In this document: one piece after another, positions 2,923 through 64,000 of the stretch
Position numbering within the stretch: the stretch's first letter is position 1
How the letters are laid out: every line of letters begins with the position of its first letter
Source: Octopus sinensis
Taxonomy: Eukaryota
Direction: 5' to 3'
NCBI RefSeq assembly: GCF_006345805.1
Contig: NC_043006.1
Location: 66,960,001-67,024,000 of the forward strand
DNA length: 64,000 nucleotides
Made by a program: the position numbers and the translations under genes
The notes under the pieces: model-generated
What the model was told of the DNA's origin: nothing
The model's database searches: none
Seen by the model: only the letters and a program-made list of their open reading frames with translations

Positions 2923-2926
2923 AAAG

Positions 2927-3392
2927 AAAACCGGTGATTGTCGTACGCTGAGGACAGGTCAATAGCTAGAAACTGCAGTCCGTGCGTATCACTTAGGTTG
3001 ACGAGGGAAGGATGAACTCCCTTTGCAAATACTATAAGGGCACAGAAAGTGTGCCTAAAGCCAGCTGGAGACGATGTTCTCCTGGGGCTACAACCTACAC
3101 TACAACCCACCATTAGTGGTTAGCCATATTGAGATGGCAAGTATACCTCACATTGTCGTGCAGTTACTGTTTATACCTTGTTCAGAGATTTATTATTGCT
3201 TGCATACAGTTTTTCGAGATCAGTGACGAAAAGTTACTGGAAAAACGATATAAGTATTTGCATTGGGACTCTTTTCATCGAAAACCGGTGATTTTCGTAC
3301 GCTGTGGACAGGTCAATAGCTCGAAACTGCAGTCCAGGCGTATGACTTAGGTTGACGAGGGAAGGATGGCGAGGATGGCGAGTATACCTCAC
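2927..3392 (+). mobile_element. Tandem 354-bp unit bounded by two hammerhead motifs (retrozyme- or PLE-LTR-like)
   Basis: 2927-3012 repeats at 3281-3368; both copies carry CTG(A/T)GGA...GAAAC-TGCA-GTC. Confidence 0.65.
2943..2985 (+). ncRNA. Minimal type-I hammerhead ribozyme motif
   Basis: GTACG-CTGAGGA-caggtcaatagcta-GAAAC-TGCA-GTC-CGTGC: both core boxes, palindromic loop 3, GUC site, 5-bp helix I; helix II is weak. Confidence 0.65.
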
Positions 3393-3406
3393 ATTTAAAA
3401 TATTTT

Positions 3407-3540
3407 CTCTATCGAAGTCAACTTTACCTTTCATCATTTCAGAGTCGATAAACTAAGTACCAGTTGTCTACTGAAGTCGATCTAATCTACTGGCCCTCTC
3501 CCCAAAAATGTCAGGCCTTGTGGCTAGAGTAGAAAAGAAT
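3407..3540 (+). mobile_element. SINE family B 3' part
   Basis: GTCAACTTTACCTTTCATC...GTCGATAAACTAAGTACCAGTT core plus GGCCTTGTG..TAGAGTAGAAAAGAAT tail. Confidence 0.75.
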
Positions 3541-11634: not shown

Positions 11635-12670
11635 ATATTACAGATGAGGAACAAAAAGCATTACAATGTCTACAAGAAGACCATCTATAGTCATTAAAGA
11701 AACTGACCAAGGACGAGCCATTGTAATAATGGACAAGACCCATTACAGGGAAACAGTCTTAGAACAACTTAATGACCAAATTTACCAACAAATTCAAGTA
11801 TGACCTAACAAAAGAGGAGTTAGATTACCTCCCTAATTTTGAAGTGAAAACAAATAATTTTTATGGACTTCCTAAAATCCATAAATCCAAACAGATCAAC
11901 AACAGCTTAAAAGACTTCCGTAATCCATATATAAAGATTCCCAAACCAACTGATCTTAAATAACGTCCAACTATTGCAGGACCAGCAGCCAGCACCCAAA
12001 TATTAAGCAACTTGTTGGACATACTTTCAAAACCTTTATGCAGATTAGTTTCCACTTTCATCAGAGATGGCATGCACTCCTTAAACCATATCTCAGAAAG
12101 GGTAGATAGAGAGAGAGAGAGTATAGTTAGATTTGACGTAACTAGTTTCTATACATATATTTCTCTTATATATATGGACTATAAGCAGTAGAATTATATT
12201 TTGAAACTTAAGCAAGGAGGACTTTACAAAATTTTCTTAAATTAATAAATAGCTTTCAAGTCTCATTCCAATTTACTATGGAAATGAATGAAAATGAACT
12301 CCCCTTTCTGGACATCCTTATAATTAAAGAAAATTAGACAGTTATAACTGACCTCTACTACAAGAACACAGACACACACCAATATTTAGATTGTAGGTCT
12401 TGCCACCCTTCCCATACTAAAAGGAACATACCATTTAACATGGCAAGGCGCATATGCTCACTAGTCACACATCCTATCAGACGAGAGAAACGACTGGCAG
12501 AGCTTAATAACAAAAATATACAAAGTTTAATCAAACATGCCATAACAAAAGGAAAGTGCCAGAAATAAAAGTCAGAAGGCATAGGATATTTTTTAAAATA
12601 TAAAACTGTATAAAATATTTTTATACACAAAGGGGAGACCATTGACAGGACTCCTTACATGCTAAAAGGG
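11635..12670 (+). mobile_element. Penelope-like element reverse transcriptase pseudogene, internally deleted
   Basis: IKETDQGRAIVIMDKTHY, FYGLPKIHK, RPTIAGP, FDVTSFYT, IQFTME..LPFLDILI, TDLYYKNTDTHQYL..SCHPSHTKRNIPF motifs; stops and frameshifts. Confidence 0.9.
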
Positions 12671-28853: not shown

Positions 28854-28956
28854 TGACATAAATATAAAAAAGAAAACGCTAGATATGTGTCACTTCCTTT
28901 TACCTGTTTCCAATGGATTTCCCAATTCATTAACATTATATCATTATTAAAACTGT

Positions 28957-29249
28957 GAGGTATACTTGCCATCTCAATATGTCTAACCACTAAGGGTGGG
29001 TGTTACTGTAGCTTGTAGCCCCAGGAGAACATCGTCTCCAGCTGGCTTTAGACACACTTTCTGTGCTCTTATGGTATTTGCAAAGAGCACAGAAAGTGTG
29101 TCTAAAGCCAGCTGGAGATGATGTTCTCCTGGAGCTACAAGCTAGAGTAACACCCACCCTTAGTGGTTAGCCATATTGAGATGGCAAGCATACCTCACAT
29201 TGTCGTGCAGTTACTGTTTATATCTCGTTCAGAGATTTATTACTGCTTG
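28957..29249. mobile_element. Fold-back insertion of the 354-bp unit family with 14-bp TSD
   Basis: ~117-bp inverted arms (28954-29070 / 29083-29199); sequence matches 3020-3200; ATTATTAAAACTGT at 28943-28956 and 29250-29263. Confidence 0.85.
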
Positions 29250-29944
29250 ATTATTAAAACTGTTTTCTTCAAATGAATAGATGAACTTCAGTATTAATGA
29301 CATTGAAAAGCATTTAAACTCCATTGTGTGCGCATATTTTCTGATTCAGCGATCATCGATGGTCGTAGAATGAGTTTGCCAAATCAAAACAAATAAAAAG
29401 TTGGTTTTATAGCGGATGACATCACACTGTCATATGTGGATAGGGTTTATTAAACATTTATGGTCTTGAAACCGGTTGGTCGGTATGGTAGGGTGGGGAA
29501 ACGGACAGTCGAACGTCTCCTATCTACAATTAAGAAGAAATAGTTCCGTTTATCTTATGATACAATTCAACAAGAGATATAGGGTTAATGATGAATGATA
29601 AGGTTCACATTTGTTTATATGTGTTTCCATTCAAGATCGTTCCATGCCAGCTCTATTAATCAGTGTATGTGTGATGGCGACATTAAGACCAGAATTCTAC
29701 CAAAATGTTGCTTTCATGTTCAGCTCTAATAAAATCAATTTTACATTAATGTGATGGTTTATCTTATACTTTTATAGAGTCCAAATTTATTATTCTTTTG
29801 CAGGAATGTTATTGACAGTGACTCTGAAGTTTCAGCAAGCTAAGCCATCACTGGAAAGTTCGAAGTCACTGTCAATGATTTTATTGCTATTATTGTTAAA
29901 GAATGATACATTTGTGCCCTGCCAAAGATGTATATATATATATG

Positions 29945-30214: not shown

Positions 30215-31080
30215 ATGTGGTGGGTTGTGTTTGTATTTGTATATGTGTGTGGGTGTATATATATATACATATATATATGAAGGTGCGCATGCGTGCGTAT
30301 AACAGAGTTTGTATGTGTGTGTGGAAGAGGGCTGGTAACCTTATGTGTGTGTGTGTGTGTGTATGTGTAGGTGTGAAAATGTGGGCCTGGGAAGTGGTCA
30401 GTGCTGGTGTGTATGTGGTGATGTCATGTGATGTGATGTTTTGTGTGGTATGGTGGTGTATGGTGTAGTGGTGTGTGATGAGGTGTTATGGTGTTGGGAG
30501 ATGGAGTAGGTGACAGTGGGGAAAGTAAAAGTGGGGGCGTGGGTTAGGCTGAGGGTGAGGGTAGGGGTGGGGTATGTGGATAGGCAGAGGGTGGTGTTAG
30601 AGATGGGCTATGTGTGACTGGGTGTAAGGGAGGGTGGGGTGGGGTGGGATGTTACGGATAGGGAAGGTGTGGTTGGAATGTGTAAGGGTGGGGTGGGGTA
30701 ACATGGGAGGGGTGACGATGAAGGGGAAGAAGAAATTGGGTAGGAGGGAAGAGAAGAGAGAAAGAGTGTAGGAGTGAAGAAAAGTAGCAATCGGAGTAAG
30801 AGCGGAGAGGTGAGTGGGAGGAAGTAGGGGTTCGGGGGAGAGAGGCGAGGGTAGGAGGTTAGATGAAGAGGGGAGGAGAGTTGAGCTCATGTGGCGCAAA
30901 GTAGCGCAGACAGAAGATTAATCCCTGTTCACGGCGCATAAGGGAGTCCAGATGGCCTCTTTGCAACGACAATCCGAACACGGACAGGTGTCGAAAAGAG
31001 TGACTGGTAGAGCGGAAATGGCGCGAGACCGGGGTGTCATTCCTGAGTCGGATGTCTGGGAGGTGTTCCACGAACCGGTC
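30215..31080 (-). mobile_element. 5'-truncated Penelope-like element: GIY-YIG endonuclease C-terminus (30859-31080) plus long low-complexity 3' region
   Basis: DRFVEHLPDIRLRNDTPVSRHF..H..LSVFGL..RREQGLIFCLRYFAPHELN matches the PLE EN pattern RF.EH..PV..HF..E..I..L....P.GLN; left boundary uncertain. Confidence 0.8.
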
Positions 31081-31081
31081 T

Positions 31082-31121
<40 letters not shown>

Positions 31122-31172
31122 GACCCCTGCGCTAGGATGACACGCAAATTCGTGAAGCGTTCCATATTTTTT
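31081..31172 (+). pseudogene. RNU6: U6 snRNA copy lacking the first ~16 nt
   Basis: ACATATACTAAAATTGGAACGATACAGAGAAGATTAGCATG.CCCCTGCGC.AGGATGACACGCAAATTCGTGAAGCGTTCCATATTTTTT; ACAGAGA box intact; two internal substitutions against metazoan U6; no 5' stem-loop or promoter. Confidence 0.95.
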
Positions 31173-39876: not shown

Positions 39877-40545
39877 AACGTGTTTATAGCCAAGGGTTGG
39901 CGTTAATGAATGGAAAAAAACAGTCACAGTTAGTTAGATTCATGTATTGATTAGAAAGACAATTAATGAATGGTTTGTTGGAGTTTATCTTCTTGTTCAT
40001 TAGACCTCGGCCAGCCCTGGCTATTCAAATGTACGGAGAGGTGAATTCCATTGGTGACCATCACATCTAATTTCGTACAGCGTTTGTAATCCAGTGCTCA
40101 CTGCCATTCTTTCTTTAAGGTAAGCTTTGACGACTAGCGACAGATTTGACTGCTATATTTAACAGGCCGAACGATCAATTAGAAGATTTCTTGTTGGACT
40201 GAGAAGAGACCATATCGGGCAAAGTTACTTGCTAGAACGATTGACACAGTGTGTGGAAATCAGGTTATAGAGTGTAGATGTTCAGAGGTAGTTGAATGCA
40301 GTGAAAAGATTTTGACGTTATAGACACATTGTATAGATAAGTTGGATAGGTAGAAATACAGTATAAATGTTAAATAAAAGAATATAACAATATATCTATA
40401 TCTATATATATATATATATATTAGAAATTGTCAACTAAATGTAGCGGTCTCAGGGAGGACGATGCTAATGTTGTTTTTAGATGCAGGAGGAGATCTCCTC
40501 CAGCTAGCTAACGACACACTGTCTGTGTCCGATTAGTATTTGCGA

Positions 40546-44759: not shown

Positions 44760-45660
44760 TCTCAAAACATAATGCATCACCCAGTTCAGCAATCGATAAC
44801 ACAATTTTACAATCATGAATGCAACACCCTGAACCTAAGTTTTGCTCTTTCAAGCCACATGATAACCCTAAGAGCATAAACCAAACTGTCATATCCAATA
44901 TTAGTGCTTGCATTTCTAAGCTTTGAGGAAATATTCGATCAGGCAGATCCCTAATATAACGCCTAGGCCAACAGCGGCTTCAAAGTGAAGGTAACTTACA
45001 CCCCTACCATAAAAAGAAAGAAGCTTTAAAATGTGCATGGTGCATACCCCACTTCTTCAAACTTAAGACAAATGTATGTAGAAAATTTCTTGGTTGATAA
45101 GCATTTCGCGGATAGACATATGTATAAGAAAATTTTAATAAACATTTGGTGAAACTTTCTAACAGCTGCTACCCGAACTTGAAAAACATTGTTATGCGTC
45201 AGTTATACTAGACAACCATTCCAAACTGTATCTTCAGAAACCAAGATAGTTGCCAGTTCATACAGACATGCATGGCTAGCGCAATGGTATATGAAGTCTT
45301 GGTAATCTCAGTTCTATCAAATAACGAAACGAAAAAGAGAAAAATATATTAGACACTCCGAAAGTAACTTCAAGAATAGATATGCCAAATATCAACATTC
45401 CTTCTTGCTCGAAAACAAGAAGAAAATTACAAAGCTAGTTAGCCACATCTGGGACTTGAAAGTTAAAAAATCCCCCACGGTAACAAGACACATTGAGTGG
45501 TTCACGTCTGCATTAATGTGTCAAGCAGGTACAGGTCATTTAAGATCTCCACCGACCTTCTGGATTGAGATAGAAAATTTTCACACAAGGCAAATATCTC
45601 AAGTTTTCGTTATCCAAATGTAGAAGGCCACCTTCTCCTGATGAGGTATAAAGTTTTACT
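44760..45660 (+). mobile_element. Penelope-like element relic (RT C-terminus, linker, GIY-YIG endonuclease)
   Basis: EIFDQADP.YNA..NSGF; KTNVCRKFL..VDKHF..FNKHLVKLSNSCYPNLKNIV; MVYE..V...YI.HSE..FKNRY..HSF..TKLVSHIWDLK. Confidence 0.8.
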
Positions 45661-48532: not shown

Positions 48533-48847
48533 TATAATTTCTTTTTCGTAATGAGATAAAAAAAAACAATGCTGTGTAGATTTGAGAACATTTATAAATA
48601 GAAGGTCTTATAGCTGTTTCGAGGATATTTATTATATCACTTCATTGGAGACGGTGTGAGAAGTTGGTTAAGTAATAGTTAATTTACATAAGATACGAAT
48701 CAACTATTACTTAACCATCTTCTAACACCGACTCCGATGAAGGGATATAATATCCTAGAAACAGGTGTAAGAACTTCTATTTATAAATGTTCTCAAATCT
48801 ACACAGTCTTGGATTTTTTTTATCTCATTGCGAAAACAAAAATTATA
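48533..48847. repeat. ~315-bp imperfect palindrome, each arm carrying a hammerhead-like motif (48605-48652 minus, 48730-48773 plus)
   Basis: Arms of ~150 bp; arm consensus GTCT-CCGATGA-AGGGATAT..ATATCCTC-GAAAC-AGCT-GTA-AGAC. Confidence 0.85.
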
Positions 48848-49082
48848 GACACACGCTGATATATGACCTAAGTTGGTCCCCTTATTCGCATAATCACCGA
48901 ATCTGAAACTTAACTATGGTCTATCCATAGCTCTTATTCAGCATTACCGGACAACTTTATATAATAGACACACGCTGATATATGACCTAAGTTGGTCCCC
49001 TTATTCGCATAATCACCGAATCTGAAACTTAACTATGGTCTATCCATAGCTCTTATTCAGCATTACCGGACAACTTTATATA
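48845..49082. repeat. Apparently exact 119-bp tandem duplication
   Basis: ATAGACACACGCTGAT...CAACTTTATATA at 48845 and 48964. Confidence 0.92.
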
Positions 49083-62639: not shown

Positions 62640-64000
62640 GTTTTTCTCTGTTCAGGCTTTTATCCAATTAGTCCTTAATGTTTGATCTTGCGCAGCTACT
62701 AACACACTTTCTGTCTTTCTCTTCAGCTTTCCTTTCTGCAGCCGTAACCTTGTCTTACTACATCTATTTACTGAAACTATCTTTGGAAATCTAGCCAGGA
62801 ACGCCTTCTCCTGCCACACAGATAACTTTTGTTCTTTTTTCTGGTTTTTAAACTCCTTTGGTGTTTTGGTTTCCCCATGTCTTGCTGTGACTGTAACAGC
62901 TTTGAATAAACTTTCTTCACTTTTACGTATATAGGAGTCTATATCTATTCTAGCTAACTCCACACAATCTTCCACTGAAATTAACCCTCTCCCGCCTTCC
63001 TTTCTAGGTAAGAGTAATCTTGCTATTCTTGCCCATGTATGTAGTCCTCCATTCATATTGAATTCTTTCCTAGTTCTTCCGTCTAGCTTTGCTAATTCAG
63101 TTTTTGTCCAGTCTACAAAAGCTGCTGAGTATCTAAGAAATGGTACTGCCCAAGTATTTTCAGCCTTCATTAGATTCGGACCATTTAATTTTACTTCATT
63201 AACTTCATTACCCTTCTGATGTACTCCTTCTCAATTTTAGCTTTCATTTCTGTAGTTAGTACTCTGTCAGATTCTAATATTCCTTGATACTCTCTCCTCC
63301 TTTCAATGATTTTAATGTCTGGCCATCTGGTAATGGGATGCCTTCGCTGTTGACTACCTGTCTCCTTCTCATGACTAATACTGCACACCTCTAACTTTGC
63401 CAATTTCCATGTCTATAGCTTTGCTGAAGAGTCTTACAGTCTGTATTAAGGAATCTGTTTTTCATTCTTACTAAAATGCTTCAGGTCATCTATGTAGAGC
63501 AAATGGTTAATTTTTCAATTACTGGTTCTGAACTGATACCCTGCCTTTGCCTTCCTTAATACTAAACTGAGGGGGAGCAAACATAAAACAAATATTAAAA
63601 GAGACACCGAGTCCCCCTGAAAAATTCCTCGTCTGATATTAACATTCTCTAAGAGTGTGTCTCATGAGTAGAAATCTACTTTCCATTTCTTCATGCTACA
63701 GCTAATTAATTCTCTTATGTTGTATAGTCAAATATTCACTTATCCATGAGTTTGGGATCATATCATAGGATTTCCTATAACCTATCCATGCTATTGTTAG
63801 ATCTTTCTTTTTAGATTTTATTTCATTTAGAACTGCCTTCTCTAGGTATAATAGATCATGCGTTCCTCTAGCCTTCTTCCTGCAATCTTTCTCTTATTCT
63901 GGTAGTAACTTTTGGTTGTCAAGGTGCTCTAAATGTTTCCTGAAAGCATTCCTGTTAACAGTTTCCCCACTGATAGTAAGCAAATGATTGGTCTATAGTT
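62640..64000 (-). mobile_element. R4/Dong-clade LINE reverse transcriptase pseudogene
   Basis: RGIFQGDS, NHLLYIDDLK, NTWAVPFLRYS..LPRKEGGRGLISVEDCV..AAQDQTLRTN; frameshifts; continues past the window end. Confidence 0.9.

Follow-up and report, generated by a model that had tools for sequence, protein, structure and literature searches.

A decayed hammerhead retrozyme in the Octopus sinensis genome, probably spread by Penelope-like elements

In a stretch of 64,000 nucleotides of the Octopus sinensis genome (contig NC_043006.1, positions 66,960,001 to 67,024,000; hereafter the window), a short segment carries two hammerhead ribozyme motifs in direct repeat, which raises the question of what kind of element they delimit and how such an element spreads. 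As originally predicted from the sequence, both motifs are of type I and lie 354 nt apart. The cores begin at 2948 (CTGAGGA) and 3302 (CTGTGGA), GAAACTGCAGTC ends at 2980 and 3334 and has no other plus-strand occurrence in the window, and positions 2926-3014 match 3280-3368 at 93%. Cleavage, predicted after 2980 and 3334, would release a noncoding monomer of 354 nt (2981..3334, plus strand), whose ends are predicted to pair and which is 91.5% identical to the unit of a tandem array found elsewhere in the genome. The longest stop-free frame of this monomer is 72 codons, in agreement with the earlier claim that no coding domain lies between the hammerheads.

The first hammerhead (2930..2999, plus strand) is composed of helix I strands at 2930-2947 and 2981-2999, a core at 2948-2954 and helix II at 2955-2968. 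At this locus, helix I has 6 bp and an extension, helix II is short, and helix III consists of 2 bp with a palindromic loop. The second hammerhead (3284..3353, plus strand) has an A6>U change in the core, as had been suspected, as well as a damaged helix I, and is likely inactive. Helix II had been described as mismatched in both copies. Its private G.G mismatch is indeed decay, whereas the C.A pair at its base turned out to be the norm of the family. Because the G.G mismatch is present in both ribozymes and the second also has A6>U, the window copy is probably a fossil, and the suspicion that the locus is dead holds.

The whole decayed insertion occupies 2927..3395 (plus strand). It is truncated on the 5' side near unit position 300, continues through the monomer, and closes with a partial last unit (3335..3395) in which unit positions 1-34 are followed by a deletion and a 22-nt stretch (3374-3395, matching 3133-3154). 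The predicted start at 2927 was correct; the end, placed at 3392, has to be moved past the internal deletion to 3395, the usual 3' end of the family. No target duplication was found at 2927-3395. One contig of run X16, a run that may be the assembly's own source, covers 3275-3446 with two differences.

Several other features were found in the window. A relative of the unit had been predicted at 40440-40545; it is present, but its extent is 40463..40543 on the minus strand, where it matches unit positions 45-125 with 74% identity and appears old. Broken frames at 62655-63412 (minus strand) presumably represent a relic of a LINE reverse transcriptase, and no Pfam match was obtained for 62655-63230. 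A near full-length match to U6 snRNA (31063-31171, plus strand, 100.8 bits) is a candidate gene or processed copy, and an exact 119-bp tandem duplication at 48845-49082 is possibly an assembly artifact.

To place the monomer in its genomic context, we searched the octopus genome with the unit. Of 3434 candidates, 40 were scored, and these yielded 104 matches. The unit is 352-354 nt long, noncoding, has a GC content of 44%, and is dispersed over many chromosomes. The matches include a tandem array, for which the original prediction had proposed to look, of 352-nt units that are 97-100% alike (G000:C30:13628679-13630974). The hammerhead core pattern has 800 exact matches in the genome and a control pattern has none. 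Among 265 distinct arms, the 232 of sufficient length for scoring have a median identity of 94% to the majority base. In 100 kb of unselected DNA there was one family fragment, which is too few for a copy-number estimate. Family sequence is also present in five sequencing runs that are presumably RNA, in contigs some of which continue into unrelated flanks; assembled contigs are uninformative about ends, strand, level and circles. Older relatives with 73-82% identity to the unit (L092:1275-2010 and L083:6455-6770) suggest that earlier families existed. A 50-nt tandem array of approximately 12 copies, which consists solely of the ribozyme's 5' half (unit positions 300-346), was observed within a two-armed insertion (L023:1895-2491, on G000:C1318), and an unrelated hammerhead-like motif matching a simple descriptor was observed on the minus strand of L090 near position 772.

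The core, the three helices and covariation were all found in the ribozymes of this family. Of 191 passing sequences, a sample enriched for U-A through a targeted search, 160 have C-G at core positions 3 and 8, 28 have U-A and 3 have other combinations. When one helix II background was fixed and positions 3 and 8 were left free, all 94 sequences were U-A, and among the first 100 of the 800 core matches listed, we counted by eye 62 C-G, 33 U-A, 4 U.G and 1 C.A. One helix II pair varies as A-U (104), G-C (75) and G.U (14) in 198 passing sequences. At the base of helix II, G10.1-C11.1 is usually conserved in hammerheads; here 159 of the 198 have C.A and 26 have G-C, and the main subfamilies may cut weakly because of it. 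Core position 4 is C instead of U in 15 of 194, including subfamilies at L007, L009, L020 and L029. Since subfamilies keep the ribozyme through compensatory change (C3-G8 to U3-A8, and A-U to G-C in helix II), these alignments point to selection on cleavage. Each change probably arose once and was then inherited by whole subfamilies, so that the changes count as few events. The U3-A8 form is described in the available text of PMC3088659 as an active natural variant of the C3-G8 core.

The structure of the insertions provided a clue to mobilization. We collected 173 distinct insertions from 210 sequence-search loci and the second copy in the window, among which a few duplicated loci may remain. 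Of 246 3' ends, 195 lie at two internal sites approximately 45 nt apart and away from the ribozyme cut: 95 at unit positions 168-178 (site A, where the window copy also ends) and 100 at 211-226 (site B), with the other 51 elsewhere. These ends have no shared tail and are not LTR-like. Head-to-head, two-armed insertions account for 73 of the 173; when both ends could be assigned to A or B, 38 of 40 were A+B and 2 were A+A (P = 7e-10), and 33 of the 73 have at least one end outside these sites. Among the 100 one-armed insertions, 43 have their 3' end at A, 43 at B and 14 elsewhere. The second insertion in the window (28954..29249) is an example of the A+B type. It is 94% identical to the unit, lacks the ribozyme, and joins a minus arm (unit positions 41-172, site A) to a plus arm (57-222, site B) between target duplications of 13-14 bp (28943-28956 and 29250-29263), in line with the relative and target duplication predicted there. 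Outside simple repeats, duplications of 8-15 bp flank 33 of 71 insertions (shuffled control: mean 1.8, maximum 5). Insertion flanks are 81% AT, compared with 65% in unselected DNA, and TA runs adjoin 59 of the 195 ends.

Insertions of Penelope-like elements (PLEs) are reported to include a truncated arm in inverted orientation and to have a tail at only one of their ends (available text of 10.1101/2021.04.23.441226). In vitro, a PLE was found to start reverse transcription at two internal sites on both nicked strands, the gap between which equals the tail length (PMC11167929, as far as its available text goes). Considering these similarities, it is very probable that PLEs mobilize the octopus family. 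Together with tandem arrays, one hammerhead per unit and target duplications, this insertion structure also upholds the original assignment of the unit to a non-LTR retrozyme family: the genomic features, namely tandem units within 150-450 bp, GC below 50% and target duplications longer than 4 bp, support a metazoan non-LTR retrozyme.

What, then, is the template that is copied? In a sample of 100 arms anchored downstream of the cut, in which the ribozyme was not a selection criterion, 86 read through the cut site, which argues for a circle or an uncleaved multimer as template. Only 5 of the 100 5' ends fell within -2..+3 of the cut, two of them with an identical flank, and there was no excess over neighboring bins. 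An earlier sample, in which no end downstream of the cut could be detected, had 3 of 26 at the cut. Cleaved linear templates leaving 5' ends at the cut were rejected for lack of such a pile-up; taken together with the read-through, this means that a cleaved linear monomer is not the usual template. A recombination hot spot at the cut site was also rejected, as subfamily markers are linked across it (r2 = 0.84).

When the arms of single insertions were compared at subfamily sites, 44 of 56 pairs agreed, compared with 10% of random pairs in a control that was not age-matched. Mixing of subfamilies was observed in 6 of 56 arm pairs and in 5 of 40 within-arm repeats, so that one monomer circle would not be sufficient for these insertions without template switching. 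Single arms joining C3-G8 and U3-A8 units were seen at L017:1284-2126, L016 and L022, suggesting either template switching or mixed source arrays. Folded as circles and compared with shuffles, three of four natural units gave z values of -4.1 to -7.5 and the array unit gave -0.8; the window monomer (2981-3334) scored -4.1, with its start predicted to pair with its end. A rod-like fold is predicted rather than proven, because only 3 of 88 predicted pairs show a double change in 17 units.

A ligated retrozyme circle has been proposed in the available text of PMC7229834. In the octopus family, such a circle would be the simplest explanation, because the ribozyme is conserved and cleaved templates have left no trace; on balance we lean toward a one-unit RNA circle, with modest confidence in this step. 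A serious rival, though the less likely one, is that the unit is a nonautonomous PLE passenger copied from uncleaved linear multimers, whose ribozyme does no more than trim long transcripts, or rarely cuts, with no circle being formed. Read-through at the cut site fits this equally well, the mixed-subfamily arms would fit heterogeneous source arrays, and the C.A at the base of helix II is atypical. Moreover, as far as the available text of PMC11167929 goes, uncleaved RNA was the main substrate of the anole PLE in vitro, and hammerhead mutants did not block its insertion. On the other hand, compensated core and helix II changes in amplifying subfamilies imply that cutting matters, the two ends of the monomer are predicted to pair, and long arrays are rare, with 159 of 173 insertions spanning less than two units. 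Efficient cutting of multimers should also give 5' ends at the cut, where none are piled up.

PLEs that could act as helpers were sought in the same genome, covering two related families with long open reading frames (ORFs) as well as one additional type known from old relics. Autonomous elements do occur. A young family (L085:1091-5593; also L081-L088 and L093-L097) has a unit of approximately 4.27 kb, an ORF of 775-777 amino acids and terminal repeats that are about 99% alike. In the one ORF scanned, GIY-YIG was above the Pfam cut-off and RVT_1 just below it. This family has two 3' ends approximately 45 nt apart beside TA runs, which blur the exact ends, and a minimal hammerhead of its own with C at core position 4, different from that of the unit. 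It is a candidate helper. Local alignments between the unit and its terminal repeat scored no better than shuffles and short BLAST matches were at chance level, and identification of a helper by sequence likeness to this family was therefore rejected.

The window itself contains a broken PLE-type reverse transcriptase relic (11964..12565, plus strand), whose pieces (11964-12188 and 12338-12565) have no Pfam match but are related to intact ORFs with reverse transcriptase and GIY-YIG elsewhere in the genome. A second segment (45306-45620, plus strand), which we take to be a relic like the endonuclease end of another PLE type, has no significant Pfam match and many old relatives, among which the longest open frame is 420 codons. 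The proposal that these relics mark candidate helpers gained no support, in that the unit is not a terminal repeat at their relatives' loci (0 of 25 loci of the 45306-45620 type) or in the young family.

Could the unit instead be the pseudo-LTR (pLTR) of an autonomous PLE, its copies being 5'-truncated PLE ends? The tails and inversions are of the PLE type, Xenopus retrozymes are related to pLTRs according to the available text of 10.64898/2026.07.22.740005, and our comparison covers only two related long-ORF families and old relics of one type. However, the unit is preceded by another unit or by unrelated flank, and the young PLE differs in both hammerhead and terminal repeat. The original prediction had named constant attachment of the unit to a PLE or LINE ORF as a point against it; in a sample of 210 element loci, a single one had a PLE protein match, which lay downstream in opposite orientation and unattached, and no shared upstream body was found in 100 one-armed insertions. 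Among the 5' flanks of these 100, only two pairs stay similar as far as the junction; one of the pairs comes from a single locus, the other from two loci on different chromosomes. Conversely, 2 of 40 PLE loci have old unit-like copies, placed as separate insertions. We thus consider this origin improbable for the present copies. An extinct pLTR is a possible ancestor of the octopus unit, and vertebrate retrozymes are derived from pLTRs in the available text of 10.64898/2026.07.22.740005. A satellite or LINE-mobilized SINE whose ribozyme-like motif arose by chance or is a relic is very improbable: no hammerhead family is among the 150 of 221 Rfam matches listed for the window and most copies have diverged by 2-12%, but the copies are dispersed over many chromosomes, their fixed 3' ends are internal and have no common tail, many insertions are two-armed, and the core is compensated.

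A reasonable hypothesis is that the window copy is a decayed member of a genome-wide hammerhead retrozyme family that likely owes its spread to PLE reverse transcriptase and endonuclease, probably acting through a circular one-unit RNA; we hold this reading as a whole with good, though not full, confidence. Tandem copies of the unit would be transcribed, and the hammerheads would cut the multimeric RNA, possibly as dimers because helix III is short and palindromic. The monomer, with its ends paired, would be ligated into a circle. A PLE protein would nick both strands of AT-rich DNA and start cDNA approximately 173 and 218 nt after the cut, at one site per strand and usually on the same RNA. 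These cDNAs would run back through the junction, stop variably, and join the target or each other. More tentatively, and with less than even confidence, a PLE protein dimer might prime twice, at two fixed sites of one ribozyme-made circle, rolling from both nicked strands; the enzyme might be recruited by structure and not by pLTR homology, and the C3-G8 and U3-A8 cores might have driven separate waves of amplification.

In the literature, as far as the available texts go, PLEs and retrozymes have been linked through co-occurrence, shared hammerheads and pLTR similarity. The octopus insertions now provide good genomic evidence for this partnership, since their scars match the two-site internal initiation described for a PLE in vitro in the available text of PMC11167929. 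They also lead to predictions: cDNA would start approximately 173 and 218 nt past the cut, each strand using one of these sites, and would run through a ligated junction. Within the family, paired variants of the core of a single ribozyme occur naturally. We found no cephalopod retrozyme in the part of the literature covered; octopus is absent from the main text of PMC7229834 and of 10.64898/2026.07.22.740005.

Compared with the metazoan non-LTR retrozymes of coral, mussel and axolotl in the available text of PMC7229834, the octopus family likewise has one type-I hammerhead per unit, and its unit size is close to that of the mussel (350-390 bp) and axolotl (350 bp) repeats. Both are noncoding, with target duplications longer than 4 bp and PLEs in the same genome. 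The window motifs share the layout of the canonical metazoan type-I hammerhead (PMC4209133, available text), and axolotl HHR_Amex2 has a weak helix II base as well. Cleavage and circles have been shown for retrozymes of the coral, mussel and axolotl type, whereas in the octopus family both are predicted; its copies are mostly short dispersed insertions instead of long arrays. The pair-preserving swap from C3-G8 to U3-A8 is the same as in the natural variants described in PMC3088659, but the octopus genome contains both forms among the amplified subfamilies of a single element. With PLEs, to the extent that the available sources describe them, the family shares truncation on the 5' side, incomplete tandem repeats, an inverted 5' arm, a one-end tail, two internal reverse transcription starts downstream of the hammerhead, and AT-rich or microsatellite targets. 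It differs in having no ORF, a canonical rather than minimal hammerhead, a tail of approximately 45 nt instead of the 30-40 nt quoted for PLEs, and a sequence that does not resemble the PLE terminal repeat compared. Two fixed start sites combined with a two-armed structure distinguish the octopus family from the metazoan retrozymes as described in the available parts of PMC7229834 and 10.64898/2026.07.22.740005.
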